Shown: positions 21,728-64,000, counted from the first letter of the stretch. The stretch: DNA of 64,000 nt from Tolypothrix carrinoi HA7290-LM1 (GCA_019358935.1 JAHHIK010000001.1:1-64000); one strand, 5' to 3'. Translations and numbers: made by a program. Notes: generated by a model not told the origin, from the sequence alone.

Positions 21728-22044
21728 AGCTTGGCGATGCCTTCGGCAATGCTACGCAAACGCTCCTACAATTGGTGGTAAAGCAAGCTTTTGATTGCGA
21801 TGGAATAAAAAAGAGTCGATTTCTAGCCTAAATGTAAGTTGTACGCTCTCCTATAAAAATATCTCTTTGTAAGTTATAAGCATAGAAGTCTTATTCTGTC
21901 CAGTTTTTTCGATGAAATTAAATCTGCGTTGGCGAGAAACTGTAAATTAAAAAACTTTTTTTAATGATGTTTTATTAGACTAAATATATATATAGCGTGG
22001 GAGTGCGATCGCCTTCTACATTGCCCCAAGACAAATCTATAAAA

Positions 22045-36967: not shown

Positions 36968-38248
36968 ATGCCTCAGAATCCGGAAAATATTCAAGATCAC
37001 GTCGAACTATTCCACCAACCGGAATACCAACAGTTATTTGAAAACAAAAAGCAATTTGAAAACGGACACAGCCCCGAAGAAGTTGCCCGTGTTGCAGAAT
37101 GGACGAAGGGTTGGGAGTATCGTGAAAAGAACTTCGCCCGTGAAGCATTGACCGTCAACCCCGCTAAAGGTTGCCAACCATTGGGTGCAATCTTCGCTGC
37201 TGTTGGTTTTGAAGGCACTCTACCTTTTGTCCAAGGTTCTCAAGGTTGCGTAGCTTACTTCCGCACCCACTTAACCCGTCACTACAAAGAACCGTTTTCT
37301 GGCGTATCTTCTTCGATGACAGAAGACGCAGCGGTGTTTGGTGGACTGCAAAACATGATTGATGGGTTGGCAAACTCCTACCAACTCTACAAGCCAAAGA
37401 TGATTGCTGTCTGCACCACCTGTATGGCAGAAGTTATCGGTGATGACTTGCAAGCTTTCATCAACAACTCCAAGAATGCAGGTTCAGTTCCTCAAGATTT
37501 CCCAGTACCCTACGCTCACACTCCTAGCTTTGTTGGTTCCCACATCACTGGTTATGATAACATGATGAAGGGTATTCTTTCTAACTTGACCGCAGGTCAT
37601 AAGAAAGAAACCAGCAATGGCAAAATCAACTTTATTCCTGGCTTTGATACCTACGTTGGTAACAACCGGGAAATCAAGCGGATGTGTGAATTGATGGGCA
37701 TCGATTACACAATCTTGGCAGATAACAGCGATTATCTGGATTCACCCAACACAGGTGAATTTGATATGTACCCAGGTGGTACTCCGTTGGAAGATGCAGC
37801 AGATTCGATTAATGGTAAAGCCACAATCGCTCTGCAAGCACACTCTACCATCAAAACCCGCGAGTACATCGAAAAAGAATGGAAGCAACCAACTGTTGTT
37901 TCTCGTCCTTGGGGTATCAAGGGTACTGATGAGTTCTTGATGAAACTCAGCGAACTGACTGGTAAACCCATTCCCAAAGAACTAGAAATCGAACGCGGTC
38001 GCGCAGTTGATGCGATGACTGACTCCCATTCATGGCTGCACGGCAAGCGCTTCGCTATGTATGGCGATCCCGATCTAGTTTACAGCGTAGTCGGCTTCAT
38101 GCTAGAAATGGGTGCTGAACCCGTGCATATCCTTGTCCACAACAGCAATGAAAACTTTGAGAAAGAACTCAAAGAGTTGCTAGCTTCTAGCCCCAATGGT
38201 AAGAGTGCTACTCTGTGGGCTGGTAAAGATTTGTGGCACATGCGTTCT
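36968..38248 (+). CDS. nifK: Nitrogenase MoFe protein beta chain, 5' part (427 codons), interrupted
   Basis: NPAKGCQPLG, GSQGCVAYFR and TTCMAEVIGDD motifs. Similarity stops after GKDLWHMRS; the C-terminal ~85 aa are absent from the window. Confidence 0.96.
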
Positions 38249-38268
38249 AAGATGTGTTTGCTATCAGG

Positions 38269-39477
38269 TTAATTAAATAATGTAGTAGTGTGAACATATC
38301 GCAGAATTTCATCCACCGCTCGCTTTGCTCCTCCAGCAGCACGACAAGCGTCACCCAGACGATCGCTGTTTGCGACAAAAGAGCGATCGCCTAGAATTTG
38401 CTGCGCTGTCTTTTGCAAACGTTCCGCTGTCACATCTTCTGGTAAAATCATAATTCCCGCACCCTGCTCCTCAATGCGGTGTGAAATAATCTCCTGCTCA
38501 TAAGTTTGGGGAACTGCAATCATCGGCACCGAGTACCAGACAGCCTCCCGCGCTCCCCCTCCCGCACCGTGCATAATAAACAAACTAGCACGCTCTAATA
38601 TCTTTAGTTGGGGAACAGTACCCGTAGGTCGAATTATAAAGTTTTCTGGGATATCTCCCAAAAGCGCAGCATCCATTCCCGGACTCAACAGCATTATCAC
38701 CTGAGCATCAATGCTGCCAAAAGCCTGAATGCAGCTTTGATAAAATGCCAAACCTGGATCGTGAATGTTGCCAAATGAAATCAGGATTACCTTATCTTTT
38801 TGTAATTGCTCCATTGGAAAATCATATTCCATCGCCCGCACCGGATTGCACGGACCGACAAAATGAAACCGCTCATCGAATTTATCGCTATAAGGCTGAA
38901 GTTCTGGCGGTAAATAACAAATATTTAGAGGTTCGATATTAGTAAATGTATCAATAAATTTAATCGGGGACAAGCCGTAAGTTTCTCGTAGCTCTCGTTG
39001 ATGTTGACGATAGTGCTTCATGCTGCCTGCTGCCTCCTTTAACAATCGGGGAAGTTTCTTTCTTAGTCTGGGACATTCATAGAAACTTTCTGGAGTGAAA
39101 GCAGCGGTAGCGATGGAATTGACAGCGGGAATATTCAGCAACTGCGCTACTAATCTTCCCCAAAGACACAGCGAGTCGTGAATGATGTAATCTGGCTTTT
39201 CCTCACGGACTGATTCTAAAAGTGCCGGCAGCATCTTAAGAGCGCACCAAGTTAACGAGGGTACTAGAGACATTTCGTTTTCCGCTGGTGGTGCTGTCTG
39301 AGGATTTAGCGGAGGATAACAACGAAAAGAAGCTCCAAACGTCTCGATTTCTTTCTGAAAACGGTCAACTTCGTAGTAAATTACCTCTTCACCTCTTTTA
39401 ATTAGCTCTGCCATTAATCCAAAAGTGGGGATGATGTGTCCGGCAGCGGAAACGTTCATGAATATAATACGACTCAT
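38269..39477 (-). CDS. MGT-family (GT1) glycosyltransferase, HasQ-like
   Basis: AAGHIIPT, ISFGN, VPQLKILERASLFIMHG and VPMIAVPQTYEQ motifs. Confidence 0.88.
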   Translation of the reverse strand: MSRIIFMNVSAAGHIIPTFGLMAELIKRGEEVIYYEVDRFQKEIETFGASFRCYPPLNPQTAPPAENEMSLVPSLTWCALKMLPALLESVREEKPDYIIHDSLCLWGRLVAQLLNIPAVNSIATAAFTPESFYECPRLRKKLPRLLKEAAGSMKHYRQHQRELRETYGLSPIKFIDTFTNIEPLNICYLPPELQPYSDKFDERFHFVGPCNPVRAMEYDFPMEQLQKDKVILISFGNIHDPGLAFYQSCIQAFGSIDAQVIMLLSPGMDAALLGDIPENFIIRPTGTVPQLKILERASLFIMHGAGGGAREAVWYSVPMIAVPQTYEQEIISHRIEEQGAGIMILPEDVTAERLQKTAQQILGDRSFVANSDRLGDACRAAGGAKRAVDEILRYVHTTTLFN

Positions 39478-39494
39478 AGAAAAATAACCTGATT

Positions 39495-39615
39495 TGGGAA
39501 TGGGGGAATGGGGAATGGGGAATGGGGAATGGGGAATGGGGAATGGGTAATGGGTAATGGGGAATGGGGAATGGGGAATGGGTAATGGGGAGTGGGGAAT
39601 GGGGTAATGGGGATT
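39495..39615. repeat. STRR heptamer tandem repeat (GGG(G/T)AAT)n
   Basis: Long run of gggaatg/ggtaatg units between the glycosyltransferase and ABC genes. Confidence 0.9.
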
Positions 39616-39627
39616 ATTTGTTATAAA

Positions 39628-41295
39628 TTAGGAAGATACTGCTAACGAAACAGAGATAATAAGCTGATGAAATTTCTTAAGATTGGGGCGATGACCTACA
39701 CTAACAAAGGTTGTCCCTGTCTCTAATAAAAGACGATAAAGATTTTCTTCGTTGTTGACATCTAAAGCGCTCGTTGCCTCGTCTAAAATGGCATATTTTG
39801 GTTTTGTCACTAGTATCCGGGCAAAAGCCAGCCTTTGTTGTTCTCCTAAAGAAAGAACGTAACTCCAATCTTTTTCTACCTCAAAACCACCGAATCGTTC
39901 TGCTAAGTTTGACAGATTTACCCTGTGGAGAATTTGACGAAGTTCTTCATCACTCACATCAACTTTGGCGTTAGGATAAATTAACTGATCGCGTAGAGTG
40001 CCTAAAATCATGTATGGACGCTGCGGTAAAAATAGCATTTCTTCTAATTCCGGACGAAAAATTACACCTGTTCCCGAATTCCACAAACCAGCTAAGGCAC
40101 GCAACAGAGAAGTTTTACCACTACCACTTTCTCCCATAATTAGTAATCCTTGTCCTGGTTGCAGTTCTACCGAGAGATTTTTAAATAAAGTCTTTTGATA
40201 ATTAGGAGTTTCTAAAGTCAGGTTTTCAACTGCTAAACGGTTGTCTTTTACTATATCAATTTTTTTATTAGCTGTTTCTTTTCTTGGCTGTTTGAGATAT
40301 TCATAAAATACGTATAGACGGTCAATTGAAGCCGCAAATTTAGTGAATATTTCAAACTGATACATTATCAAATTCACAGAAAAAGCGACGCTTCCAAACG
40401 CTCCCATAGCTTCTGTCACTTTTCCCACTTCGACTTTACCTATAAGAATCTGGTTTCCGAGAATCAATGCTGGTAATATTAAGGTAAGATTGCCAAATGG
40501 ATATTTAAATACATTTAAATACAACTCTGACCATAAGATTAATCGTTTAAAGTTATTAAATACTTCATTGAATAGAAGTTTAATTTTGTTGGCTTCCTGA
40601 AAGGTTCCGTTATAGAAGGCAATAGACTCGGCATTTTCTCGAATGCGAACTAAACCAAAGCGAAAATCAGCTTCTTTTCTCAGTTGATTTAAATGTAGTT
40701 GAGTTAATTTTCTGCCGTAAAAGCCAATAGTGATAGAGTAAGCTAATATTGAATAAATTAATAAAGCAAAAACTAGATTTATGGAAATATTCCAGAGAAT
40801 GAAGCTAAAAGCAATTACTACAAAAATAGATTCAATAATATTTACAAAAAACTGAATGGATTGCTGGCAAAAACTGGCGACATTTTCGGCAATACGTTGG
40901 TCTGGGTTGTCAATTTCTTGGTTAAAGTTGCTTAACTCATAAAAAGCGCGATCGCTAAAATATTGATTCAAGAAGCGATCGGTCAACCAGCGACGCCAAT
41001 AAATCCCTATTGTCTCTCGCAGATAGCCATAGCCAGAATTAAGGAAACCAGAAATGATTATCCCTCCTAATGCAATTACTACACCTTGCCAGAATCGATT
41101 GCTATCACGGGCAGAAAGGGCAGAAATTAACTCTCCCTGTATGGTATTTAAGAACACCTTGACTTGAGTGTTGGCTAATAATAACACTCCGAGAAGCACA
41201 AGTAGAGCATTAGCACCTTTTTTTTCATTACCTAGCCAATAAAGTTTAGCGATCGCCCAAAACCGCTTGACCACCGTCAAGTTGAATCGATTCAT
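39628..41295 (-). CDS. ABC exporter, fused permease/ATPase (HasA/McyH-like)
   Basis: DNPDQRI, EADFRFGLVRIRENAESIAFY, GESGSGKT, LSLGEQQR and LDEATSALD motifs. Confidence 0.92.
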   Translation of the reverse strand: MNRFNLTVVKRFWAIAKLYWLGNEKKGANALLVLLGVLLLANTQVKVFLNTIQGELISALSARDSNRFWQGVVIALGGIIISGFLNSGYGYLRETIGIYWRRWLTDRFLNQYFSDRAFYELSNFNQEIDNPDQRIAENVASFCQQSIQFFVNIIESIFVVIAFSFILWNISINLVFALLIYSILAYSITIGFYGRKLTQLHLNQLRKEADFRFGLVRIRENAESIAFYNGTFQEANKIKLLFNEVFNNFKRLILWSELYLNVFKYPFGNLTLILPALILGNQILIGKVEVGKVTEAMGAFGSVAFSVNLIMYQFEIFTKFAASIDRLYVFYEYLKQPRKETANKKIDIVKDNRLAVENLTLETPNYQKTLFKNLSVELQPGQGLLIMGESGSGKTSLLRALAGLWNSGTGVIFRPELEEMLFLPQRPYMILGTLRDQLIYPNAKVDVSDEELRQILHRVNLSNLAERFGGFEVEKDWSYVLSLGEQQRLAFARILVTKPKYAILDEATSALDVNNEENLYRLLLETGTTFVSVGHRPNLKKFHQLIISVSLAVSS

Positions 41296-41582
41296 TTGTA
41301 TAATTTATATATGTTTTTAATGATGAAGACTTCCAAAAAGCAAGGGTTCGCTTGTGGATTTTAATACTATACCCTATAGTCACTTGGCTATAATTAATCG
41401 CGGTCAAAGTCAAAATCTCGGCTTTGATGCTGTGTAGTGTTGATTACCAAGTTTTTTCTGATTGGGTGCGACACAAGCGATCGCTTACAGAAAATAATGT
41501 TGTAATATTATGTCGGGTTGAACAACTATAAATAAATATAACAGCCGATTGTCGCTTAAATTAGAAATTTATACATAATAAA

Positions 41583-42866
41583 ATGCGTATTTTCACATTA
41601 ATTTGGTTGGGACAACTAGTTTCTCTGATTGGCACCTGGATGGCTGTATTTGCTCTGGATATCTGGGTTTTTCAGAAAACAGGCTCCGCTACCCAGTTCG
41701 CTTTAGTTACCTTGACTTCTACGGTACCACCGATCCTCATTTCGCCATTAGCAGGCACATTAGTGGATCGTTGGGATCGGCGCTGGACAATGATTATTAG
41801 TCATTTGTGTAATGGGCTGTCTACCCTAACTATTCTGGCGTTAGTAATTACCGGTCAACTAGAAATTTGGCACATCTACCTGAGAAATGTCTTCATTTCA
41901 ATTTTCGGTGCTTTTCATTCGCCTGCTTATAAAGCTTCGATCACATCCTTGGTTCCGAAAGAGGATTTAGCCCGCGTCAACGGTATGGTTCAACTTTCAA
42001 TGGGCATTCAGCAAATCATCTCACCTTTACTAGCAGGTATTTTGCTGAGTCTTATCCAGCTTAAAGGTATTCTCTTTATCGATTTAGCAGCTTTACTGGT
42101 TGCCCTTGTGCCCCTTGTGTTAGTGCCATTCCCGCAAATTAGTCAGCCTGCTGATGAGAACCAAGAGCCTTTATCAATTTTGCGAGAAATAGGCTACGGC
42201 TGGACTTATTTGACTGAGCATTCTGGATTACTAAGGTTTTTGATTGTCTTCACCATTTACCAATTCTTGATCGGGTTTGTTGGTGTACTGATGTATCCCT
42301 TAATTCTTTCTTTGACTACCCCAGCTAGCTTGGGACAAATTGCATTCGTTGGCGGTATTGGTACTCTCGTGGGTGCTTTGGTGATGAGCACTCAGAAAAA
42401 TAGTTGGAAAAACTTGATAGTCCCAATACTTAGCGCCATGTCCTTAAGTGGGCTGTGGATTGCCCTTGCTGGTTTGCGTCCCTCTATTATACAGATTGCG
42501 ATCGCAACTTTACTTTTCTTCGTGACTGCTCCTTTCATTAACGGCTCAGTGCAGGTTATTTTTCAGACACAAGTTGCCGAGCGGGTACAGGGAAGAGTCT
42601 TTGCTTTAACCGGAGCGATATCGGGGATTGCTATACCGCTAGCTGCACTTGTTGCTGGTCCTTTGGCTGACCGTGTTTTTGAGCCACTAATGGCATTTGA
42701 TGGACCTTGGTCTAGAAACATTATTGGTCAGGTGATTGGTTCTGGACCAGGTCGCGGCATCGGACTGCTATTTGCGATCGTCGGGTGTTTTATAATGGTT
42801 GCAGCACTTATTGCCTATCAATACCCTGGCATCAGAGAATTAGAAGAAAATTTACCTGATGCGTGA
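41583..42866 (+). CDS. MFS transporter (HasK/HasZ-like)
   Basis: GTLVDRWDRR, QGRVFA and GPGRGIGL motifs. Confidence 0.9.
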   Translation: MRIFTLIWLGQLVSLIGTWMAVFALDIWVFQKTGSATQFALVTLTSTVPPILISPLAGTLVDRWDRRWTMIISHLCNGLSTLTILALVITGQLEIWHIYLRNVFISIFGAFHSPAYKASITSLVPKEDLARVNGMVQLSMGIQQIISPLLAGILLSLIQLKGILFIDLAALLVALVPLVLVPFPQISQPADENQEPLSILREIGYGWTYLTEHSGLLRFLIVFTIYQFLIGFVGVLMYPLILSLTTPASLGQIAFVGGIGTLVGALVMSTQKNSWKNLIVPILSAMSLSGLWIALAGLRPSIIQIAIATLLFFVTAPFINGSVQVIFQTQVAERVQGRVFALTGAISGIAIPLAALVAGPLADRVFEPLMAFDGPWSRNIIGQVIGSGPGRGIGLLFAIVGCFIMVAALIAYQYPGIRELEENLPDA

Positions 42867-42932
42867 ATCTTCATTACAACAAAGTGCCCCTAATTTAAAA
42901 ATGATAGAGGCAAGTCTCATTGCTTCTACTTT

Positions 42933-44969
42933 TTAGCTTTTATCATCCCGTAAAAGTCGCCCTAAGACAAATGTGAATGGTGCAAGTCGAACTCGCATAC
43001 CATCTTCCACAAGATGGAATGCTCCACCCGATGTCGCGATCAGCAGATCAACTCCGGAGAACTCACCATACAAATTAGGAATCTTTAAAGCCTGCTCAAA
43101 TACTGGTCTAGGTCCAAGGTTCATAGCAATGAAGAGCGGCTGATCGACAGCCATACTATGAATAAGTACACACCAAAGACCATTTTTTCTAGAGAATAAT
43201 AAAGTGCGGGTTCCACTTTGAATTAGTTGGTTTTGAAACCTAATTTCCGCAAGCTGTTGAATCAGTATGAAGGTTGGGTGGTTTTTGTTATAGGGTTGGA
43301 AAGATTTTCGGTTAATCGGACCAAACTGCCAAACACACGCAGGGTTCTCAAACATGTCCTCCCGCACGTAGCAATCATGACCAATCCATTCTCCTGTATC
43401 CTCTCGTTGATGCATCCCTAAAGCACCAGAAAACTCTTGCTCGGTTCCTTGATAGATAGAAGGTATTTGAGGTCCAAGAATCAAGCAGGCAAGAGCAAAG
43501 TGCAGATAGACTTTAGCATCGTCTTGGCTTGGTATGCGACTTAAGAACTCATGGAATATTCTAGTTGTGTCTTGGTTTTCGAGGAACATAATATTGTTCC
43601 TCCAACCAGCATAATATGAGTGTGATGGAGCCAGAAAACCACAAAAATAATCTGCCAAACCCCCTAACCAACTTTGATCTGCAAGAGAGTACTTGACGGC
43701 GGTATAATAAGTTGGGTAGTCTATCATATTCGAGAATTTGGCATCATTGTAGGCAATTAATTCTTCGTGAGTGCTTCCAGCGTGTTCGGCTATTTGCAGA
43801 AACTGCTTTTTCCCAAGATAGGTGGTATATCTTGATATCTCTTCAACGCAAGGCTTCCAGAAGTCAACACCAACGTGACGTGCGGAATCGTATCGAAAGC
43901 CATCAATGTCCGTTTCCGCAATCCAGTATTTGAGATGGTTAATTAGCAACTCGCGGACGTAGCTTGTCTCTGTTCGCCAATCTTCCAAGAAGCCAAACAG
44001 TCTTTGATTCACCATATCAGTGTATTCCGGACCGTGGAAGAGTGATGTGTTACGTGCTTCTACGGGAAAAGGCATGACTGTAGTATCATCACCTTGCAAG
44101 TATTTAAATTCCCCTCCAGTCGGACCACCATACTGTTCCCAGTTAATACTATCTGTGATATGATTGTTGACAACATCTAAAATAACAGCGATATCAGCTT
44201 CATGAGCTTTCGCGACAAGCTCGCGCAGACACATAAGTGTACCCAGACGTGGATCGACCATCAATAGGTGAATTGGATGATAGCCATGATAGCCGTCAGC
44301 AGCGTTGACATACACGGGGCTGAGGATAATTGCTCTTATTCCCAATGACTTCAGGTATTGTATCTGCTCAGTAACGCCACGAATTGTCCCACCGTGGCTT
44401 GCATATGGGTCAGAAGGATTATACCTGACTGCGCCTATATCGGTGCGATCGCTGTTATCACTTCGGGCAAATCTATCGATGATTATAGAGTAAAACAGAC
44501 GTGCGTCCCAATCCGGGGGGCTGGATGTCATTTCAACCTGTGGTATTGGTCCATACAGAGGTTGGTTGTTAACAAACCCAAGAAACACTGATTGAATTTC
44601 AGCCATTGACCGAGGTGATGTATCGCAGACAAGAAGAAAACGCGATCGCACACTTGTATGCTCCGAACCTAACATATCAACATAACCCAGGCTATATCGA
44701 TATCCACCCCCGCTACTGATAGGTGGTAGGGTGAGTGAAAACATTTTGAACCCATTTTCGATAATGCCTTCAGTATGTGCCGTAATTCGACCTGAATCGC
44801 AATATCCTTGTCCATCATTCAACTCATAAGCTATTTGCCCAAAATCTGGATCTTTTGATAAGCTAATACCAAACTTGATGCAGATTTTCTCATCACTCCT
44901 AAACACCCAAGTAAATGGTGCAATGTTCGGTTCAAGATGTACTTCACAGTATTCTTCAAAATAGCGCAT
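42933..44969 (-). CDS. GH13 alpha-amylase-family protein (HasB-like)
   Basis: IDRFA, YHGYHP, LDVVNNH, DGFRYDSARH and FLENQD motifs. Confidence 0.88.
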   Translation of the reverse strand: MRYFEEYCEVHLEPNIAPFTWVFRSDEKICIKFGISLSKDPDFGQIAYELNDGQGYCDSGRITAHTEGIIENGFKMFSLTLPPISSGGGYRYSLGYVDMLGSEHTSVRSRFLLVCDTSPRSMAEIQSVFLGFVNNQPLYGPIPQVEMTSSPPDWDARLFYSIIIDRFARSDNSDRTDIGAVRYNPSDPYASHGGTIRGVTEQIQYLKSLGIRAIILSPVYVNAADGYHGYHPIHLLMVDPRLGTLMCLRELVAKAHEADIAVILDVVNNHITDSINWEQYGGPTGGEFKYLQGDDTTVMPFPVEARNTSLFHGPEYTDMVNQRLFGFLEDWRTETSYVRELLINHLKYWIAETDIDGFRYDSARHVGVDFWKPCVEEISRYTTYLGKKQFLQIAEHAGSTHEELIAYNDAKFSNMIDYPTYYTAVKYSLADQSWLGGLADYFCGFLAPSHSYYAGWRNNIMFLENQDTTRIFHEFLSRIPSQDDAKVYLHFALACLILGPQIPSIYQGTEQEFSGALGMHQREDTGEWIGHDCYVREDMFENPACVWQFGPINRKSFQPYNKNHPTFILIQQLAEIRFQNQLIQSGTRTLLFSRKNGLWCVLIHSMAVDQPLFIAMNLGPRPVFEQALKIPNLYGEFSGVDLLIATSGGAFHLVEDGMRVRLAPFTFVLGRLLRDDKS

Positions 44970-46417: not shown

Positions 46418-46453
46418 AAGTGGTTCTACAAATAATTGAAAATATAATACCAA

Positions 46454-46700
46454 TGGGGAAAAGGGGAAAGGGGAAAAGGGGAAAGGGGAGGCAGTGCGGT
46501 CTTGGTGTCGGACCTGCGTGGAGCATCTGCCTATGATTGGGAAAAGGGAAAAGGGAAAAGGGGAAAGAATTATTACCAATGACGGCAGGTGCTTCAACGC
46601 TCTTAACCCGCGCAACCCACAGCCAAACCTATGCCCCATGCCCAATGCCCCATGCCCCATGCCCCATGCCCAATTCCCCATGCCCAATTACCCATTATCA
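46454..46700. repeat. STRR heptamer runs (GGGGAAA)n and (TGCCCCA)n
   Basis: Runs at about 46454-46490, 46539-46566 and 46631-46700. Confidence 0.85.
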
Positions 46701-46701
46701 A

Positions 46702-48090: not shown

Positions 48091-48167
48091 AATTCAGTTG
48101 AATAATTGGTGAGAATATTAAAAGTGGAGGTAAATAATAAATATTCAGTTTGGCATGTTTATAAATG

Positions 48168-49022: not shown

Positions 49023-49145
49023 GAAAAATTTTTGTTGGAATTAGTCAGATTCAGTTTATAATACGCTTAGTAAATTCGTAATGAATTAAACGCACTCGTT
49101 TCGCAGAGTTTCACTACGAATATGGTGAAATGTAGTTAGTTACTG

Positions 49146-50210: not shown

Positions 50211-50211
50211 C

Positions 50212-53200: not shown

Positions 53201-56200
53201 TCCCAAGCTGTTTTAAAAGTTTCTACATCCAAAATTCCTTCAATTTCACCCGTCACCTGTTGCAAATAAAGGTCTTTTTCAGCTTCATAGTTTGCATGGA
53301 AAAGTATTCCCTCCTGAACAGGAGATAGCGGGTAAATATCTTCTACATCGGTAGTTCCTGCTAAAGCAATAGCCAATTGTTCAGAATTTAACGCTGCTAA
53401 AGGAAAATCCGCAGGTGTCCAACTGTATTCTTGCGTGCGGTTGGTTGCTAACATCTGCAAATGTCTGTAAAAGCTATCTGCCAAACTACGAATAGTTTCT
53501 TCTCGATGCAAAGCTTGACTGAAACCAAACCGTATTTGTAATTTGCCGTTAGCAATTAAACTGGTTATTTCTAGTTGGAAAGTACGCCGATTTTCTGGAT
53601 GGCGAGAGATTCCCACATCTTCAGCAGCAAGAGTAAATGCTGCTGTTTGTGAGAAATTATCATCAAATTGCCCCAGATAGTTAAAGATAATTCCTGAAGG
53701 AATTTTCGGTAAAATCGCAGATAATTCTGATTTTTGACTGAGGATTCCATAGGGTAAACCGTTGTGTGGCAAGTTGCGATACTGTTCTTTAACGCTTTCC
53801 AGATTGCCCAACAAATCGCTTGTTGTTTTCTGCAATTTGCAAGGGAAAAGAGATGTAAACCAGCCGACAGTATTACTAACGTCAATGGTAGTAAAATCAC
53901 TTTCTCGTCCGTGACTTTCTAAGGCAATTAATATCTCTGATTCACCCGTCCACTCTGTCACTACTTGTAAAAGAACTGCTAAAAGAACTTCCTGAATCCT
54001 AACTTTGCGGGTGCGCGGCAGTTCATAAAGCAGAATGTCGGTTTCATCTTTGGTGAAATTGCACTCAATTTGAGTGGCAGAACTTTCTTTGTTCTCTGCT
54101 ATAGCTTCAGGAAAATCAAGAGGAATATCTGGATTAGATATCTGTTGCGTTGTCCAGAATGCAACGTCTTTTTCCCAATCGGAATTTTCAATTAGGGTAT
54201 GTAGATGATGACTCCACTGCGGAAAACCTACATTATTAGCAGATAAAGAAATTTCCTGATTTTTTTGCAAAGCATCACAAGCTACCGCTAAATCTTTCAA
54301 AATGACGCGCCAAGAAACACCATCAACGATGAGATGATGAATAATTAGTAGTAGCTTATCGGCTGTGTTTTCCTCAGTTCGGAAATAAACAGCGCGAAAA
54401 AGAAGCCCGTTTGCTAAATTAAGTTGAGCCTGAAACTGAGTAGCGATCGCACTCAAACTTTCCGATAATTCTTGTTGGGGAATGTCAGTCAGATCAACGA
54501 TATCAAAGCTGAAAACCTTACTATCATCGCTTACTCCTGATTGCCTAATTTTTTCCTTCTCTTCCTCTGCGTCCTCTGCGTCTCTGCGGTTAGTTAAATG
54601 CTGCGTCCAGCCGTTTTCACTTTGGCAAAATCGCAGATGAAAAGCTGGGTGAATTGCGACAATATGACTTAAAGCAGCTTGAAATTCTGCCGCGCCAAAT
54701 TCCGGTTTTACATCCAAGAAAATCGCCTGATTCCAATATTCGGGATGCGCTAATTGCTGCTGGAAAAACCAATTTTGTATAGGAGTCAGCGGTATTTCAC
54801 TTCCTACAGGAATTGATAAATAATTGGGTATTGCTGCTGTTTTCACATAAGGTGCAAGCGCTTCTACTTGAGGATTGTTAAACAAATCTTGGGGAGTAAA
54901 ATAAAGTCCCAAATCCCGCGCTTTGGCAATAATTTGTAAAGAAAGGATAGAGTCTCCTCCCAATTCAAAAAAGTCATCTTTAATCCCTACACGGGATACT
55001 TGCAGTACTTCCCCCCAAAGTTGAGTAAGGATATTTTCTATTTCGTTTTGCGGAGAAATATATTCGCGAACAACAATATTTTCCTCTTCCGGAACGGGTA
55101 AAGCGTTAAGGTTAATTTTACCATTTGGTAGTAACGGCAAAGCATCGAGACTAACAAACAAAGATGGAATCATGTAATCAGGGAGAGTCTCGCGTAGTTG
55201 CGATCGCAGCAATGTTTGCCAGTTGACGGCTGGTGCTTTTAGTTCTAAGTAAGCAATCAGTCGATTCGGTTTTTCCGGAGTGGAAATTGCTTTAGTGACA
55301 GCACGAACTACCCAAGATGGCTTTTCTAATGCTGTAACAATCTCGCTTGTTTCTATGCGGAAACCGCGTATTTTTACTTGTTGATCGAAACGTCCCAAAA
55401 ACTCAATATTGCCGTTGGGTAAATAGCGAGCGCGATCGCCTGTGCGATACATCCGACTGCCTGCATTTTCCGCAAATAAATCGGGCAAAAACCTTTCTGC
55501 GGTTATACTTGGGGCATTCCAGTAACCGCGAGCTAATTGACAGCCAGCTACAAATAACTCTCCCGGTGTGCCAATGGGCACAGGTTCAAAATCGGGATTG
55601 AGGATATACAAACGAGTGTTGGTGACTGCTTTGCCAATTGGAATCGTATCAGTATTTTCGGTGCCATTGCAACGATGAAAAGCGACATCAATAGTTGTTT
55701 CCGCAGGTCCGTAAAGATTCACTAAAGGAATCGGCATTTTCTGAAAATCCCAAACTCGCTTTTTCAATGCTTCACCACCGCTGAAAACCATCCGAAGACT
55801 GAAGCATTGAGAAAATCCCGGTTCCCTTAGAAGCATTTCTAAAAGACTCGGCACCAATTGCAGCAAGGTGACATTTTCCTCCTGAATAATTTTCACCAAA
55901 TACGCTGGATCTTGATGACCTCCCGGTTTTGCCATTATTAATTTGGCTCCCACCATTAAAGGTGTCCAGAATTCCCACACCGAAGCATCAAAACTAAATG
56001 GTGTCTTTTGCAGCACAACATCGGCACTATTAACTGCAAACGTCTCTAAAAACCAAGCTTGATGCTGTGCTAAAGCTTGGTGGGAAATGGCAATTCCTTT
56101 TGGTCGTCCGGTGGAACCAGAGGTGAATATAATATAGGCGATATTTTCACTGAAAATCGGAATTTCTAAGTTTTCCGAAGATTGCAGGGCAATTTCTTCT

Positions 56201-59200
56201 CTGCAAGCATCAATGCAGAGAATTTGGGTGTCAACGTTCGCAAAATTTGGGATTTCTAAATCAGAGCGAGTCAGCAACAGACTAACTTTCGCATCTTCCA
56301 GCATAGACTGGATGCGGACAGGTGGATAATCAGGGTCAATCGGCACATAACAGCCACCCGCTTTCAGAACCGCAAGCATCGCACAAACCATATCTAGGGA
56401 ACGTTTCAAACAAATACCCACTGGCTGATTGTCAATAGCGCGATCGCCTAAAAATCGCGCCAACTGATTTGCTTTTTGGTTCAATTGGGCATATGTCCAA
56501 CTTTCTTTCTCGCAGATAACCGCAATCGAATTAGGATTGTTTGTTGCTTGTTGGGCGAAAATTTCATGTACCCATTCAGTAGGTTGCCAAGAAGATTCTT
56601 GTTGGAAGAAAATTTCTTGAATTTCTTCCTGAGTCATCAATTCTGCTGTTGGTTTTGCCTGAGGATTAGCAATCAACGCTGCACAGGCTCTTTGATAATA
56701 ATTAGCAATGTTAGCTATTTGTGTATCATCAAATTGCTGGCGGTCATAAGTAATATTAAACGAAAGATTTACCGCGTTTACTTCTTCACTGCAACTGACG
56801 GCAAAAGGAATATTTGTTTCATCTAAAGATTCGGCTTGAATTAATTCTACTTCCCGCAAATTTAACAAGCCTTGATAAACATGAAAGTGGACAAAATTAA
56901 ACGAAGTTTCATAAAGATTTTGAGACTTCTGCAAACGTTGAATTTCTGCTAAAGGAAAACGACGATTAGGCATCAATTCTTGTTCAGCAAGCCAAGTTTC
57001 GGCAATCAAGTCAACCCAAGAATTTTTTGATAATGACAAGCGCAATGGTAATGTATTTAGGAAGAGTCCTAAAACGCGATCGCTATCAGTTTCTCCCGGT
57101 CTCCCATTACTCACCAATCCGGTAACTACTTCTGTTTCCCCACAGCAAAAACCGATAACTTGCAGGTGAACCGCTAACAATAACGTTTTCAGAGGTACAC
57201 CCAACTGCTGAGATAAAGCTTTTAAATCGCCGGAAATTCTTTCTGGTAAAGTAATATCAAATTTACCCATCCTTGGCAGTGCCACTGGCATCATCACAGG
57301 CAAGCGTGGCAGTTTGGTGAAAGAAATTCCCGCCAGTTTATTTTGCCAAAATTCGCGCTGATTTTCATCATCAAGAGCCTGCTTTTCCAAAGCGATAAAT
57401 CTGGAGTATTGCAAAGCAGGTGCAGGCAGTGGTGCAGGCACACCCCTGTCAAGTAAATGAAGATACAAACCTGTTAATTCTGCCAAAAAGTTGGCTAAAC
57501 TCCATCCATCCATAATCGCATGATGCAAAGTAAAACTTGCTTGCATCACATTTTCATCAAGCAGGTGAATATGAAAACGTATCAACGGTGCTATTTTATA
57601 ATCGAAGCGATTTTCTCGTTCTTCGGCAATAAATGTTTTCAGATACTCATCTTGTTCTAATGTCGATAAAGCAGTTAAATCGTTAAAAATAATTTGTGCA
57701 GGTACATCTTTCACAACTACCTGAATCGGCTGGCTAAATTCTCCTAAATAAAATGCCGTCCGCAATACCCGATGTTTTTCAAACATCTGAGTATAAGCTT
57801 GTTCCCAAACATTCAAATCAAAAGGTACGCGAATGCGGAAACTGAAAACATCATGGTAAGTTGTAGATACTTCTGAATATTCACCATGAAAAAGCATTCC
57901 CGCTTGAAGTTGTGCCAAGGGATAGGCATCTTCAGCCCAATCAAGCAACTTGTCTCGGTCTTTTGGTGAAATTAAGGCGAAAGGTTTTTCATCAATCTTA
58001 TTGCTTTCTACTACTTCTGTTTTTGCCAGCAATGCCGCTAAATCTGACAACACAGGATGAGCAAAAATTTGCTCTAATTTTAAGTTTAATCCCAATCCTT
58101 GTGCTAAAGAACAAACTCGAATACTACGAATAGAATCGCCACCCAAAACAAAATAATTATCAAATCTTCCGACGCGATTTATCCCTAAAACTTGTTGCCA
58201 AATGTCAGCTAAAATTTCCTCAATCGGAGTAGCGGGAGCAACAAAAGCAACTTCGAGATTTTCTCGTTTAGTTTCAGGAAGGGGAAGCGCTTTGCGATCA
58301 ATTTTGCCGTTGGGTGTTAAGGGAAATCTTTCTAAATAAACAATCTGCGACGGTATCATGTAATCTGGTAAACGCTGCTGAAGATGATTTCGCAACGTTT
58401 CGATGGTTGGTTGTTTTTCACCAGTACAAACTACATAAGCAATTAACCGTTTTTGATTAGTTTCGGTGTCAGAATCCACCAAAACAATAGTTTCCTGCAC
58501 ATCAGTAAATTGGGAAATAGCGGTTTCTATTTCGCCGATTTCAATCCGGAAACCGCGAATTTTTACTTGGTAATCTATGCGTCCCAGATATTCCAAATCA
58601 CCGTTAGGAAGAAAGCGACCTAAATCGCCACTGCGATACAAACGCGATGAGGAATCTACTGAGAATTTATCCTGAACAAACTTTTCTGCCGTCAATTCTG
58701 GTCGGTTCAGATAACCACGAGTAACTCCCGCACCCCCAATATAAATTTCACCAATAACTCCTGGGGGAAGGAGATTACCATCAGGATCGACTACATAAAG
58801 TTGTAAATCGGGAATCGGTTGACCAATCAAACTGCTAGATTTTTCTATATCTTTTTTGCTAATCGGTCTGTAAGTTACATGGACTGTCGTCTCTGTGATT
58901 CCGTACATATTCACCAAGCGCGTCTGATTTTCCCCGTGACGCTCAAACCAGGGACGCAGACTTGGCAAGTTCAGCGCTTCGCCGCCAAAAATGATGTAGC
59001 GTAAAGACGTTAGATCATTTCCGCTTGCGTCGGAGTCATTCAATATTTTATCCTTAAAAACTCTGCGACCCTTTGCGTCAGCCTTTGCGCTTCTTTGCGT
59101 TTCAAAAATATATAATTCCGAACCTTTACCCGTTTCTGCGGCTAATAACTGAGCAAAAGCTGAAGGAGTTTGATTGAGGACAGTAACTTTCTCATTTTGA

Positions 59201-61314
59201 ATCAACTCAAGGAAGCTTTGCGGATCGCGGCTGATACAATAAGGAACGATAACAAGTCTCCCTCCATAAAGCAAAGCTCCCCAAATTTCCCAAACAGAAA
59301 AATCGAAAGCGAACGAATGAAAGAATGTCCAAACGTCCTGCTCGTTAAATTCAAACCAGTGCTGGGTGCTGCTAAATAAGCGAGTGACGTTGTGCTGAGT
59401 GACTAAGACTCCTTTGGGCTTGCCTGTTGAGCCGGATGTGTAGATAATATAAGCGCCAGCATCGGGATCTAAAGCTTCTAGTGTCAAAGGTGCAGTGCTT
59501 TCATGCAGATATGCTGCATCTTCCGCATCTAGACAAATTTTCGGCGTTAAGTCTGGAAGCTGGGAACTGATGGCTGTTGTGGTGAGAATTAATTTTGCTT
59601 TGCAGTCAGAAATGGTGAATTCGATGCGATCGCTAGGATAACCAGGATCGAGAGGAACATAAACACCCCCCGCCTTAACGACACCCAGCATAGCTACAAT
59701 CAATTCTGGAGAGCGATCGCAACAAATCACCACTCTTTTTTCCGCGCCAATTCCTGAAGAATGCAGATATCGGGCGATACGATTAGAACGCCGATCTAAT
59801 TCTTCATAAGTAAAACTTTCACCATCAAAAGTCAGAGCAATGCGATCGGCATATTTCCTGACAGTTTCCGCAAAAATTTCTCTAATAGTAATTGACCTAT
59901 TACCAATTCCCCATTCCCCATTACCAATTCCCAATTCCCCATTACCAATTCCCCATTCCCCATTACCAATTCCCCATTCCCCATTACCAATTAACGATAA
60001 AGACTTCAAACTTGCTTGAGCATTATTTGCCATATTAATCAACAAATGGCAAAATTGCTCTAACAGTAGTTTCATCCCCACCGCATCAAAACGACCCGCA
60101 TTGTAACTTAATTTAAAATAAATTCCATCCCCTGGAACCACCACCAAAGTCAAGGGATAATGTGTAGTTTCCAAGAAAGATGACTCCGGAACATTCAAAC
60201 CAAAATCTGCTGCTTTTAACGATTTATCAACAGGAAAATTCTCAAAAGCAAGCAAACTTTCAAACATTGGTTGTCCTCGTGGGACATCACTCCAACCTTG
60301 AATATCTGAAAGACTGGAATGTTCAAACTGACGCATTTGAGCTTGTTGCCCTTGAATCATTTGCAACCAAGAATCAAGGCTTTTTTCTCCAGATACAGAG
60401 ACGCGGAACGGCAAAGTATTGATGAAAGGACCAATCATTCCTTCCACCCCTGGTAATTCTGGGGGACGTCCCGCTACTGTAATGCCATAAACAACGTCTT
60501 CGTTGCGACTATAACGGTTGAGCAAAATAGCCCAAGCCCCTTGAATCACCGTGTTGAGAGTGACGCTACAATTGCGGGCTAATTTATGCAATAAAGCAGT
60601 ATTTTCTGGTGAGAAATCATGTTTAATTTCTCCGCTTTCAAAAGCATTATTTTGCTTTGCCTTTGGTATCATTAACAAAGGAGTGGCACTTTCAAACCCG
60701 CCCATATATTCACGCCAAAATGATTCGCCATCTTGGGGATTTTTCTGTTTAAACCAGGCGATAAAATCGCTATAAGGTCGCACATTTGGTAATGAGATTT
60801 CGGTATTTTCTTTAGCTGCTTTGTGCAACAATAAAAACTCACGCAGTAGTATGGGCCAAGACCAACCATCTAAAATAAGATGGTGGTGACTCCAGACTAA
60901 ATGCCAGCAGTCTTCGGCTAAACGAATTAAAGTTACCCGCATCAACGGGGGACGATTAAGAATAAATCCCTGCCGTCTGTCTGCTTCTAAAAATTGTTTA
61001 AGGCGGTTTTCTTGTGCCGAGTTACTCAGACCGCGCCAATCTTCTTCTATTATGTTAAATGCCAGGTTGCGAAATACTACTTGTACGGGTTCGCTTTGCC
61101 CTTTGGTGATGATGGCAGTCCGCAAAATGGTATGGCGGTCAACTAAGGTTTGCCATGCCTGCTGCACGGCAATTATAGAGACGTTGCCTTCTAAACGGCA
61201 ATGAAATTGCTCGAAATAAACACCTGATTCGGGGTCGTAAAGGGAATGGAAAAGTAAACCTTTTTGTAGAGGTGTGAGGGGAAAAATATCTTCTATTTTA
61301 TCTTTGAGGCTCAT
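50212..61314 (-). CDS. hasO: Three-module NRPS C-A(Thr)-T-C-A(Gln)-T-E-C-A(Gly)-T, HasO-like
   Basis: Manually read A-domain codes DFWNIGMVHK (Thr), DAWQFGLIDK (Gln) and DILQLGVIWK (Gly); E domain [11 protein letters not shown] motifs GGDSI, GGDSI, GGHSL. Matches Dhb-D-Gln-Gly of hassallidin. Confidence 0.85.
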
Positions 61315-61400
61315 AATAATAATCCTATATAATTTATTTAACGAACCGCAGAGTACGCAGAGTACACAGAGATAAGGGAGATGATAAATTACGCTTTTGG

Positions 61401-64000
61401 CTATGACAAATCTTCAAGTATCGAATCGAGTTCGTTTTCTGACAAATCAACTAGGTGAAAGTCGGTGGCACTGTAAAATGAGGAATTGCTAGTTGAATTT
61501 GTGAGGTATAAACGCAGGTTGTTCAGATAATTTTCTGCGAGGTTATGGATAGTTTGAGAACGATGAATATGCTGGCTGTAAGTCCAGTTTATTTGCAGGC
61601 GATCGCTTTGCACATGAGCGTTAATTGCTAATAAATGAGGTCGTTCTTGTTTGGGAAACAATCCTACTCCTGTGGGTGCATTACTCAGGCTGAAATCGCT
61701 TTTTGTTAAGCTCTCAATTTGTCCTAGATAATTGAAGCTGATGGCGGGTTGTTGTACATTGGTAAAAGTTTCATTTTGACTTAAATAACGCAGCAAACCG
61801 AAGCTGATGCCATAATGGGGAATGGCTCGCAGTTGTGTTTTAACTTCTTTGAGTAACATATCATGATGGGCATTTTCCGCAGGTTTTTTCAAGAGTATTG
61901 GATATAAGGATGTAAACCAGCCGACTGTTCTTGAGAGATCCAGTCCGCTGACAAGTTGCTCTCTGCCATGTCCTTCTAAATCGATGAGCCAATTATCTGA
62001 TTTGTAAGTGTCGGTGAGGGTTTTTAGTAATGCTGCTAACAAAATTTCTTGCACACCGGCATGGTAAGTGGCAGTTGCTTGTTTGAGCAAAGCAATGGTT
62101 TCCTCTGGGGATAATTGGGAAGATTGAATGACTGCACTTTCTACCGTATTACTTCCAGGGATAACTGGATAATCAACAGGTAATGGGGTGAGAGAAGTTG
62201 ACAGTATTTCTTGCCAAAATGATATGTCTTTTGTAATTTCTGGAGAATCAGCTAAAGTTTGCAAAGAACTAGTCCACTGTCGATAAGAGGATGTTTTTAA
62301 AGGCAAGGAAATCGGCACAAAGGCGATCGCCTGTTGGTAAGCTTGGTGTAAATCTTCAATCAGAATCCGCCAGGATACGCCGTCTACAATCAAATGATGT
62401 CCGAAGAGATACAAAATGTTTCCGTATTCCAAAAGGTTTTTGACATACAAAAGCCGCAACAATGGCGGATGAGCAAGCTGAAAAGACCCATGTTCTTCTT
62501 CCACAATTGCTGTTAAAGCTTGTTGTTGCGTTGAAGGCGGATAGTTGCTAAAGTCTTCGATTCGCAAAGAAGGACTTTCCGGAGTCCCGGTATAAAATTG
62601 CTCCCAGTTGCCCTGATTTTCGCAGAATCCCAAGCGAAAGACATCATGATGGGCAATTAAAGCGTTTAATGCAACTAAGAGCGCATCGATGTTCAACGGC
62701 TCGTTTAAACTAATTGCTACTGCTTGGTTCCAATAATGTGGATGCGGCAAATTTTGAGCAAAAAACCAATGCTGAATCGGAGCAAGGGAAACGGTTCCAG
62801 TTAACGGTTCGATAATTTCCACATCCGGCGCCCCTGCTAGTAATTTGGCTTTTGTCGCCAGTCGGGACAAAGTTTGCGCTTCAAAAATATCTCTGGGGTT
62901 AATCTCCCATCCTTTCTCGCGAGCGCGAGAAACGATTTGCAAGCTAATTATCGAGTCTCCCCCAAGCTCGAAGAAATTATCATGCAAATTGACGGTTTCC
63001 AGCCCTAGCACTTCTGCCCAGATGTTGCCTAATATCTCTTCGGTTTCATTTTTCGGTATAACTTCACTTGTTGGCAGTTCGGGTGCCAGAAGAGCTTTGC
63101 GATCAATTTTACCGTTGGGGGTGAGCAACCATTCTTTGAGCAAAACTACTGCACTCGGAACCATATAAGCAGGCAGAACTTCTGCTAAATAATCTCGTAA
63201 TTCGCTCGCAGTCGGTGGGTTTTCTTGAGGTGTTAGAGCATAAGCCACTAGTCGCTTGCGTCCGGGTACGTCTTGACGCAGCATCACCACTGCACTGTCT
63301 ATCGCTTCATGTCTGGTTAAAGCGGCTTCGATTTCCCCCAATTCGATGCGATAACCGTTAAATTTTACCTGCTCGTCTTGGCGACCGAGAAAACGGATGT
63401 TTCCTTGTAAATCGTAAACTCCGCGATCGCCTGTTTTATAAAGTCTAGCACCCGGTTCTTTGGCGAAGGGATGGGGAATAAATGCCGCAGCGGTTAAATT
63501 AGGGCGATTTAAGTAGCCGCGTGCTAAACCGATACCGCTAATATAGATTTCCCCGGTGACACCCGGAACCACTGGTTGCAGAAACGAGTCTAGCAGGTAA
63601 ATTTCCACATTGGCGATCGCTTTGCCAATACTCGGTTCACCTACTAGATCGGAACAATCGCTCAAACTCGCGCAGACAGTCGCTTCTGTCGGTCCGTAAG
63701 CGTTAAAACAAAAGCGTTCCCCTCCACCCCAGCGTCTAAGCAAATCCCCAGAAGCCGCTTCTCCAGCCACAATCAAAGTTTGCAATTTTGGTAAATTCGA
63801 CTGTTCCATAGCAGCTAAAAGCGACGGTGGAAGAGTTAAATGAGTAATTTTCCACGCGGTTAAAGCCGACCAAAGAGCAGAACTAGGCGATCGATTTGCC
63901 TTTTCTTGCAGATATAAAGTCGCACCGCTACCCAATGCCATAAAAATCTCAGAAATTGCCGCATCAAAATTCAGCGAAGCAAATTGATAAACGCGACTTT
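61401..64000 (-). CDS. hasN: NRPS 3' part ...A(Tyr)-T-E, HasN-like (5' end outside window)
   Basis: The frame is open to the window edge (QFASLNFDAAISE); code DASTIAAVCK (Tyr); GGDSI; terminal E domain. Confidence 0.82.
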   Translation of the reverse strand, partial: SRVYQFASLNFDAAISEIFMALGSGATLYLQEKANRSPSSALWSALTAWKITHLTLPPSLLAAMEQSNLPKLQTLIVAGEAASGDLLRRWGGGERFCFNAYGPTEATVCASLSDCSDLVGEPSIGKAIANVEIYLLDSFLQPVVPGVTGEIYISGIGLARGYLNRPNLTAAAFIPHPFAKEPGARLYKTGDRGVYDLQGNIRFLGRQDEQVKFNGYRIELGEIEAALTRHEAIDSAVVMLRQDVPGRKRLVAYALTPQENPPTASELRDYLAEVLPAYMVPSAVVLLKEWLLTPNGKIDRKALLAPELPTSEVIPKNETEEILGNIWAEVLGLETVNLHDNFFELGGDSIISLQIVSRAREKGWEINPRDIFEAQTLSRLATKAKLLAGAPDVEIIEPLTGTVSLAPIQHWFFAQNLPHPHYWNQAVAISLNEPLNIDALLVALNALIAHHDVFRLGFCENQGNWEQFYTGTPESPSLRIEDFSNYPPSTQQQALTAIVEEEHGSFQLAHPPLLRLLYVKNLLEYGNILYLFGHHLIVDGVSWRILIEDLHQAYQQAIAFVPISLPLKTSSYRQWTSSLQTLADSPEITKDISFWQEILSTSLTPLPVDYPVIPGSNTVESAVIQSSQLSPEETIALLKQATATYHAGVQEILLAALLKTLTDTYKSDNWLIDLEGHGREQLVSGLDLSRTVGWFTSLYPILLKKPAENAHHDMLLKEVKTQLRAIPHYGISFGLLRYLSQNETFTNVQQPAISFNYLGQIESLTKSDFSLSNAPTGVGLFPKQERPHLLAINAHVQSDRLQINWTYSQHIHRSQTIHNLAENYLNNLRLYLTNSTSNSSFYSATDFHLVDLSENELDSILEDLS

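Follow-up and report, generated by a model that had tools for sequence, protein, structure and literature searches.

What interrupts a nitrogenase gene, nifK, after 427 of its codons, and why do more than 25 kb of biosynthetic genes follow? The question is raised by a 64,000-nucleotide stretch of Tolypothrix carrinoi HA7290-LM1 (GCA_019358935.1 JAHHIK010000001.1:1-64000), here called the window. Heterocystous cyanobacteria excise nif-interrupting elements during heterocyst differentiation. We hold it very probable that, in vegetative cells of this strain, nifK is split by such a developmentally excised element, of the nifK 1277-1280 kind, and that this element carries an intact hassallidin-type gene cluster (has), likely as a passenger. 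It opens a contig of 196.6 kb, C1, of which positions 1-64000 equal the window numbering; the source genome (G000) comprises 7.96 Mb in 184 contigs.

The break in nifK

The features at the left junction are as follows.

36968..38248, + strand: nifK 5' part, codons 1-427 (Pfam DUF3364 and Oxidored_nitro; identity to the NifK of genome G005)
38249..38272, + strand: left arm of the element, seven non-nifK codons and TAA, including CTATCAGGT at 38261-38269 (sequence comparison)
38269..39477, - strand: MGT-family glycosyltransferase, first cargo gene (Pfam EryCIII-like_C/UDPGT; NCBIfam TIGR01426, 318 bits)

The open reading frame (ORF) at 36968-38272 (+) encodes 434 residues with the Pfam domains DUF3364 and Oxidored_nitro, the latter covering profile positions 1-336 of 399. 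The product of codons 1-427 is 96.7% identical to residues 1-429 of the uninterrupted NifK of G005, a genome of the same genus; the similarity breaks off at codon 427 (TCT, 38246-38248), which is followed by seven unrelated codons and TAA. The stop codon of the glycosyltransferase gene, at 38269-38271, lies 20 bp past the break. From the 3' side of that gene to the end of the window, all ORFs of at least 100 amino acids (aa) that are not nested in the peptide synthetase genes are of biosynthetic or transport type, and nifK was not found to resume downstream of 38248 within the window. The original prediction, made from the window, had described each of these features: the end of nifK at codon 427, confirmed by the end of NifK homology at 38248; a glycosyltransferase stop codon about 20 bp away; and more than 25 kb of biosynthetic genes without a return of nifK, upheld by the Pfam scan of the ORFs to the window end.

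The same prediction had allowed for a misassembly at about 38250. Indeed, the genome is a draft of 184 contigs, and the join of nifK to the glycosyltransferase gene could be chimeric. We regard this as exceedingly improbable, given that the junction is repeated in the species-level genomes G001 and G009, that G001 has the whole element and both nifK halves on one contig, and that 38248/38249 is also bridged by Logan contigs of X4 and X5, two runs from other studies among the four compared. In addition, the right junction restores the reading frame exactly.

In two further genomes of the genus, G002 and G008, and in run X2 (there at window 38272-38291), the conserved left arm is separated from the stop codon of the glycosyltransferase gene by a short extra sequence, which looks like a small insertion.

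The far end of the element and the gene restored in silico

A genome-wide family search matched the last quarter of the nitrogenase domain at about 99.3 kb on C1, directly upstream of nifE and nifN, and comparison of the two junctions delimits the element.

C1 38249-99323 (window part 38249..64000), unstranded: whole nifK element, 61,075 bp (junction comparison)
C1 97723-99276, - strand: XisF-family large serine recombinase, 517 aa (Pfam PF00239, PF07508, PF13408; NF041201)
C1 99324-99578, + strand: nifK 3' fragment of 84 codons, starting SLLFTEPVD, followed by a Mo-nitro_C ORF, nifE and nifN

The recombinase contains the Resolvase (PF00239), Recombinase (PF07508) and zinc ribbon (PF13408) domains and scores 516.5 bits against the recomb_XisF equivalog NF041201, for which the cut-off is 375. 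Its N-terminus reads YARVSTEEQ, which we take to be the motif of the nucleophilic serine. The recombinase ORF, on the strand opposite to nifK, lies 47 bp from the nifK 3' fragment. GTTCT is found at both junctions (38244-38248 and C1 99319-99323), and when one copy was kept and 61,075 bp were removed in silico, a NifK of 511 aa resulted, identical to the uninterrupted G005 protein at 498 of 511 positions (97.5%) without a gap. A tblastn search across the genome found no second nifK; the only nifK is thus the split one, and the Mo-nitrogenase therefore depends on the joining of its halves.

The original prediction had pointed beyond the window for the rest of the has-type synthetase genes, for a recombinase and for a nifK 3' fragment with an LLFTEPVD-like start. 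All three are present, the synthetase genes spanning C1 61401-96071. Its claim that the cluster is cargo of a large nifK element is supported by the distal recombinase, the 3' fragment and the full-length NifK obtained in silico. From its membership in this family of elements, we infer that it would be excised in heterocysts.

Proposed recombination sites

Besides the left arm given above, the sites comprise the following.

38244..38248, unstranded: left GTTCT core, nifK nucleotides (nt) 1277-1281 (identical 5-mer at C1 99319-99323)
C1 99299-99307, unstranded: right arm ACCTGATAG (inverted repeat of the left arm)
C1 99319-99323, unstranded: right GTTCT core (shared 5-mer)

The two 9-bp inverted arms, CTATCAGGT and ACCTGATAG, lie just inside the element ends and are symmetric about the TC of GTTCT. 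The left arm is kept in G001, G009, G002, G008 and G200, the last from another genus. The cores vary slightly across G000, G001, G008 and G200, the TC being invariant in all four. At the computed circle junction, 17 of 30 positions are symmetric around TC, against a background of 7.7 +/- 2.5 for random positions of the contig; a symmetry of at least 17/30 was reached by 0.08% of 20,000 such positions. The restored nifK site gives 10/30, which is not significant. Such a layout is what one expects of attP and attB sites for a large serine recombinase that crosses over within 2 bp, and the crossover would lie at the central TC of GTTCT.

A hassallidin-type pathway as cargo

Four nonribosomal peptide synthetases (NRPSs) form the core of the cargo. 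They are listed in module order, C, A, T, E and TE denoting condensation, adenylation, thiolation, epimerization and thioesterase domains.

C1 89439-96071, + strand: NRPS of 2210 aa, modules 1-2, C-A-T-C-A-T, the first domain being C (beyond the window)
C1 61401-70604 (window part to 64000), - strand: NRPS of 3067 aa, modules 3-4, C-A(Thr)-T-E, C-A(Tyr)-T-E (domain mapping, codes)
50212..61314, - strand: NRPS of 3700 aa, modules 5-7, C-A(Thr)-T, C-A(Gln)-T-E, C-A(Gly)-T (domain mapping, codes)
C1 78294-86783, - strand: NRPS of 2829 aa, modules 8-9, C-A-T-C-A-T, with a methyltransferase inserted in the first A domain (module 8) and a terminal TE (beyond the window)

Domain mapping thus gives 2+2+3+2 = nine modules, with E domains after modules 3, 4 and 6. 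The nine A domains were aligned with MAFFT, and the specificity residues, at positions that follow the PheA rule, yield the code DFWNIGMVH (Thr) for modules 1, 2, 3, 5 and 8, DASTIAAVC (Tyr) for module 4, DAWQFGLID (Gln) for modules 6 and 9, and DILQLGVIW (Gly) for module 7. Codes and domains together predict the chain Thr-Thr-Thr(E)-Tyr(E)-Thr-Gln(E)-Gly-NMeThr-Gln (NMeThr, N-methylthreonine), which we take to be the hassallidin backbone. It reproduces the order Tyr(E)-Thr/Dhb-Gln(E)-Gly (Dhb, dehydrobutyrine) that had been read from the window at the outset.

All four NRPSs are 70.1-74.6% identical, over their full length, to those of the cluster on plasmid1 of Aulosira laxa NIES-50 (AP018308.1), which is curated as hassallidin (PMC8600333). 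The C-terminal 1901 residues of the 2829-aa NRPS match that plasmid at 72.6% over full length, and the SDR and a hydroxylase match their plasmid counterparts at 85% and 77%, respectively. In the published has layout, nine modules are likewise spread over four NRPS genes, and glycosyltransferases and an acyltransferase are present as well (PMC5834425). Among lipidation-type genes, the SDR is present in the element. The first glycosyltransferase has protein-database matches with generic names only, its close relatives being from Dolichospermum (82%) and Cylindrospermopsis (74%). The match to hassallidin clusters proposed in the original prediction is thus borne out by NRPS orthology to the curated cluster. 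We conclude that the cargo is an apparently intact cluster for a hassallidin-type glycolipopeptide, the formation of which is suggested by these orthologies and codes.

Decay of the cargo in related elements

In a survey of 11 genomes of the genus, in which nifK was scored as split or whole by the lengths of the open frames surrounding the match, nifK is cut at the same point in seven (G000, G001, G002, G004, G006, G008 and G009). It is whole in G003 and G005 and ambiguous in G010, and G007, which is 54% complete, gave no match. The G001 element (62.5 kb) contains the whole cluster, with proteins 87-97% identical, but its 3700-aa NRPS lacks residues 452-1001 and its cupin and epimerase genes are truncated. 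The 27-kb element of G008 retains NRPS scraps only, together with accessory genes at 81-93% and one divergent MFS gene at 67%. In G006 the element measures 16 kb and has no NRPS; it keeps the ABC transporter, a truncated GH13 gene, methyltransferases, SLATT, the acyltransferase and PMT_2 at 86-91%, and an MFS gene at 67%. The 4.2-kb element of G004 is reduced to three genes, for the recombinase, a DUF4231 protein and a small protein unrelated to the cluster. In G009, a broken glycosyltransferase gene adjoins the nifK 5' part and the remainder is on other contigs. By their gene content, the elements of the genus form a deletion series of 62.5, 27, 16 and 4.2 kb, then none.

G006 possesses a second has cluster, which is intact and lies at an ordinary chromosomal site (C14 243070-291386), with NRPSs 73-77% identical to those of G000 and no recombinase within 20 kb. 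Outside the genus, G200 has a nifK element of 115.8 kb with the same arms and a recombinase 76% identical to ours. It holds a complete has cluster whose NRPSs are 70-73% identical to those of G000 and which has orthologues for 17 of the 22 G000 cargo ORFs. Three further nifK elements, from other genera, carry unrelated cargo: a type III CRISPR-Cas system and DEAD-box helicases in G023 (C27 188955-233234, 44 kb; recombinase 90% identical), transporters in G015 (32 kb) and miscellaneous enzymes in G022 (19.7 kb). The developmental element of G023 thus carries a defence system, with CRISPR-Cas genes for RAMP proteins, Cas6 and Cas_APE2256.

The glycosyltransferase served to tally the cluster more widely. 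Among 201 genomes of the family, orthologues (at least 64% identity) occur in 15, G000 included. They lie in or beside a nifK element in five (G000, G001, G008, G009 and G200) and outside a complete, one-contig nifK element in two (G006 and G043); nifK is uninterrupted in five (G093, G210, G126, G077 and G195), and the position is ambiguous in three (G060, G051 and G173). The has cluster of G093 was considered as a candidate for nif-element cargo and rejected: some 40 kb separate it from nifB-fdxN-nifS-nifU, which is intact and lies downstream of it, and its flanks are ordinary genes without a recombinase. In G043 (C79 19543-131000), the nifH gene beside nifD lacks its own first ~37 codons, and a divergent has-like cluster (NRPSs at 55-61%) lies 77-110 kb beyond this truncated nifH on the same contig. 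A nifH element exceeding 133 kb may house this cluster; however, the end of the contig is reached without a nifH 5' part, the surroundings contain no recombinase gene, and the genome has further nifH copies that are intact.

Movement of the cluster between replicons

In a maximum-likelihood tree of the 3067-aa NRPS (seven rows; the midpoint root serves the drawing only), G000 and G001 form one pair (100/100). The in-element copy of G200 pairs with the Aulosira plasmid copy (100/100), and the two are then joined by the chromosomal copy of G006 (100/100). Aligned as DNA, the Aulosira plasmid and the element of G200 share 38.9 kb in five blocks at 89.9-96.5%, which comprise has genes only. As judged from the tree and this alignment, two different has lineages occupy nifK elements, and one of them is nearly the same as the copy on a conjugative plasmid. 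The separate placements in the tree and the near-identical plasmid copy argue that the has cluster changed context at least twice. The original prediction had further proposed a spread by integration into nifK, which we treat as hypothetical.

These observations raise the question of whether the position of the cluster is adaptive, that is, selected because excision switches its expression or copy state according to cell type or because the circle is a transfer intermediate. Both the presence of two has lineages in nifK elements of two genera and the 90-96.5% DNA identity of the G200 copy to a conjugative-plasmid copy would suit this idea. So would the predicted circle, which would bring the DXD and MGT glycosyltransferase genes together, with the recombinase gene and the junction between them; in the G006 and G200 clusters the same two genes are neighbours, with a cupin gene between. 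We nevertheless think adaptive coupling quite unlikely, since neutral hitch-hiking fits both the stepwise losses seen in the genus and the unrelated cargo of other genera (CRISPR-Cas, transporters, miscellaneous enzymes), since has clusters occupy ordinary chromosomal sites in G093 and G006, and since the element is without transfer genes. A broader version, in which the nifK element would serve as a vehicle, a recombinase-plus-attP integrative cassette with a safe harbour in a terminal-cell gene, exchanging cargo with plasmids and giving cell-type-specific antifungal production, we consider equally doubtful.

Further genes of the element

The element contains 23 ORFs of at least 90 aa and is 91% coding; 19 of the 23 are for biosynthesis or transport. 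Its G+C content is 41.0%, that of contig C1 41.2%. Apart from the genes already listed, the cargo consists of the following.

39628..41295, - strand: SbmA/BacA-type ABC transporter (Pfam ABC_membrane_2 and ABC_tran)
41583..42866, + strand: MFS transporter (Pfam MFS_1)
42933..44969, - strand: GH13 alpha-amylase-family protein (Pfam Alpha-amylase)
45448..46224, + strand: two-domain methyltransferase, Methyltransf_24 / CmcI-like (Pfam)
46702..48090, - strand: second MFS transporter (Pfam)
48168..49022, - strand: Cupin_8/JmjC-type protein, putative hydroxylase (Pfam)
49146..50210, - strand: NAD-dependent sugar epimerase/dehydratase (Pfam)

Beyond the window:
C1 70639-71211, - strand: Asp/Asn beta-hydroxylase
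C1 71531-72295, + strand: SDR
C1 72448-73326, - strand: DUF4231/SLATT
C1 74339-74959, - strand: hexapeptide acyltransferase
C1 75297-76931, - strand: PMT_2 glycosyltransferase
C1 77053-78141, - strand: methyltransferase
C1 86820-87641, - strand: orf273
C1 87864-88754, - strand: WelO5-type halogenase
C1 96108-96404, - strand: orf98
C1 96560-97381, + strand: DXD glycosyltransferase

The first cargo gene, for the MGT glycosyltransferase, is convergent with nifK, and no sense nif read-through into the cargo is therefore expected. No transfer genes were found among the Pfam-annotated ORFs of the element. The halogenase, which is of the WelO5, carrier-independent type, is kept in the G001, G200 and G006 clusters at 80-82% and may point to a chlorinated, balticidin-like product; balticidins are chlorinated. 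The 1-kb gap at C1 73327-74338 contains short ORFs that look like fragments, each in another frame, of a GtrA-type membrane protein, for which an intact gene stands at the matching place in the G006 element (L049 7587-8051); the GtrA-like sequence is probably a pseudogene here.

Probable further interruptions of nif genes in the genome

The nifD gene (20362-21831) appears to be interrupted near its 3' end by an element of ~14.7 kb. This element ends with an XisA-like ORF (472 aa, 35054-36472, -) that has a weak phage-integrase match, and it carries a 1641-aa DUF4011/AAA_11/AAA_12/MTES_1575 helicase-nuclease (22045-26970). A second XisF-equivalog recombinase (18532-20091, -; 523.6 bits) lies just upstream of nifD, and the nifH at the start of contig C40 (1357-2118) matches profile positions 1-254 of 271 only. 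Because of this upstream recombinase and the 3'-truncated nifH, the first 20 kb of the window (1-20362) probably belong to the end portion of a third element, inserted in nifH close to the 3' end of that gene. The putative cargo of the latter includes MarR/MFS genes, methyltransferases, a Cad transporter and an aldo-keto reductase. On contig C35 (20460-24186), a further nifH-like gene stands beside two component-1-like genes that are 21-28% identical to NifK; by these matches, the C35 genes are assigned to a second, distant nitrogenase-like set.

Proposed sequence of events and its weak points

Our working model is that the vegetative chromosome carries its sole nifK split after codon 427 by the 61,075-bp element. 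During heterocyst differentiation, the element's own XisF-family recombinase would pair the ends, cut at the central TC of GTTCT and rejoin the strands. The outcome would be an intact 511-codon nifK in the nifHDK-nifEN cluster, with nifHDK then expressed, and a 61-kb circle with an attP-like imperfect palindrome at its junction, which would stay in the non-dividing cell. As heterocysts do not divide, the element would be inherited through vegetative cells only. The four NRPSs would build acyl-Thr-Thr-D-Thr-D-Tyr-Thr(Dhb)-D-Gln-Gly-NMeThr-Gln, released by the thioesterase, and three glycosyltransferases, an acyltransferase, hydroxylases, the WelO5-type halogenase and exporters would accompany them. 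The hassallidin-type product would be made by vegetative cells, in which the insertion site would be cost-free and the cargo prone to decay. The cluster is most likely a passenger of the element, a reading that we favour because of the decay series and the unrelated cargo in other nifK elements.

Several points weigh against this model. Neither restored nifK nor the circle junction was found in the Logan contigs of the four runs, but contigs drop rare variants, and this result therefore says nothing for or against excision. A genome-wide search for xisH and xisI gave 15 XisH and 17 XisI matches, none of them within C1 38249-99323, and at least 10 xisH/xisI-type pairs are located elsewhere in the genome, outside the nifK element. 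No separate fatty acyl-AMP ligase (FAAL) or carrier protein was seen among the ORFs of at least 90 aa in the element, nor an AMP-ligase or carrier protein among those of at least 40 aa in 6 of the 12 element gaps longer than 150 bp, a comparison made without has reference sequences; lipid initiation would therefore rely on genes elsewhere. Finally, the cluster is damaged or deleted in all four sister elements inspected end to end (G001, G008, G006 and G004), which argues for weak selection and would allow the copy here to be silent.

The first two points would also suit a fossil insertion that no longer excises, leaving nifK permanently broken and this Mo-nitrogenase unused: the Logan contigs are without the excised form, and the element is without xisHI genes, which resemble recombination directionality factors. 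We judge such a fossil very unlikely. Neither nifK piece contains a frameshift or a stop, and joined they match an intact orthologue at 97.5%; the recombinase ORF has its full length and passes the XisF equivalog cut-off; and different species and genera share the core and the inverted arms. Furthermore, the neighbouring operon genes nifH and nifD each appear to carry an element of their own, with an intact recombinase, as is usual for functional heterocystous nif operons (PMC4874684).

The remaining points bear on the product. The has-like cluster might be silent, incomplete or responsible for a markedly different lipopeptide, in short a decaying relic. The absence of a FAAL or acyl carrier protein from the element, the frame-broken appearance of the GtrA-like gene at 73327-74338 next to its intact G006 counterpart, and the state of the sister copies, damaged in G001 (NRPS, cupin, epimerase) or stripped of NRPSs in G008 and G006, are compatible with this, and has clusters are known to be lost in culture through hasV deletion (PMC3542288). 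On the other hand, each of the four NRPS genes has an uninterrupted frame of 2210-3700 codons, their C-A-T(-E) sets are complete and a TE is present, the G200 cluster has counterparts of 17 of the 22 cargo ORFs, and the leading C domain of the first NRPS fits direct N-acylation. We therefore consider a relic unlikely and retain the intact, passenger cluster as our preferred explanation.

Significance

Elements of this kind are known, and so are clusters of this kind; within the reach of the literature search, what is new is that they occur together, along with the deletion series and the link to a plasmid. In the sources available to it, among which Vestola et al. 2014 was not included, the search found no published link between hassallidin and nifK elements and no report of an NRPS cluster as nif-element cargo, in agreement with the remark in the original prediction that no large NRPS cluster was known in this role. 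Since elements of up to ~1 Mb are known, biosynthetic genes inside one are unsurprising in themselves. The novelty lies in the recurrent finding of an element made up almost wholly of a single pathway that is complete and has a name.

The cargo function and the origin of nif-interrupting elements are open questions (PMC4874684). One recognisable pathway with an assayable product makes the questions about cargo testable, namely expression from the circle, production in vegetative cells only, and selection. The deletion series of the genus, from 61 kb to 4 kb to none, offers a rare stepwise picture of cargo decay, and the near-identity of the G200 and plasmid copies ties one antifungal pathway to three contexts: plasmid, chromosome and developmental element. 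For natural-product mining, it follows that clusters can hide within "broken" nif genes. If the nifK element were a vehicle after all, hassallidin genetics would differ between cell types, the genes being chromosomal in vegetative cells and, in heterocysts, part of a non-replicating circle with a new gene junction.

Comparison with known systems

Hilton, Meeks and Zehr (2016) catalogued 101 interruption elements, of which 8 are in nifK, in two variants (PMC4874684). The nifK 1277-1280 variant is hosted by Calothrix desertica PCC 7102, Calothrix sp. PCC 7103, Microchaete sp. PCC 7126, Rivularia sp. PCC 7116 and Scytonema hofmanni UTEX 2349 (PMC4874684, Table B of S1 File). These five elements are inserted at nifK nt 1277-1279, have the repeats GTTC, GTTCT or TCTTT, measure 16.0-84.7 kb and end with a serine recombinase gene in minus orientation; a sixth listed element, split over two contigs, is at nt 1278 with the repeat TAG (PMC4874684). 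The element described here is inserted at nt 1277 (38244) of the ORF starting at 36968, has a GTTCT direct repeat at both ends and a terminal serine recombinase antiparallel to nifK, falls with its 61,075 bp inside the published range of 16-85 kb, and gives back an intact gene on removal in silico. By these features, it belongs to the published nifK 1277-1280 variant. It differs in that nearly the entire element is one complete NRPS cluster. The gene content of interruption elements, which reach about 1 Mb, is described as highly variable and their origin as without a clear answer, and the terms NRPS, nonribosomal and secondary metabolite have no occurrence as cargo in the main text of that paper (PMC4874684).

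Compared with the has clusters of Anabaena sp. SYKE748A, Cylindrospermopsis raciborskii and the Aulosira plasmid, the cluster likewise has four NRPS genes and nine modules, as well as MGT, PMT_2 and DXD glycosyltransferases and a hexapeptide acyltransferase. Unlike those clusters, it lies inside an element of a developmentally excised type rather than at a plain chromosomal site or on a conjugative plasmid; its gene order is rearranged, and no lipid-loading genes of the hasG/hasH type were seen in the element.

The recombinase, being above the XisF equivalog cut-off, also recalls the fdxN element and XisF of Anabaena/Nostoc sp. PCC 7120, an element of similar size that interrupts a nif-operon gene as well. 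There, xisH and xisI accompany xisF (PMC4874684), whereas they are absent from the nifK element here. The target gene and the core are different too.

Outside cyanobacteria, the element can be compared with two elements of Bacillus subtilis, SPbeta in spsM, which also carries an antimicrobial (sublancin) locus, and skin in sigK. In these systems as well, a large element splits a gene of a terminal cell, a large serine recombinase excises it in the differentiated cell, and the germ line retains it (PMC4191935, PMC5499854). SPbeta and skin are prophages or prophage-derived and belong to Firmicutes, whereas the nifK element is without phage genes.

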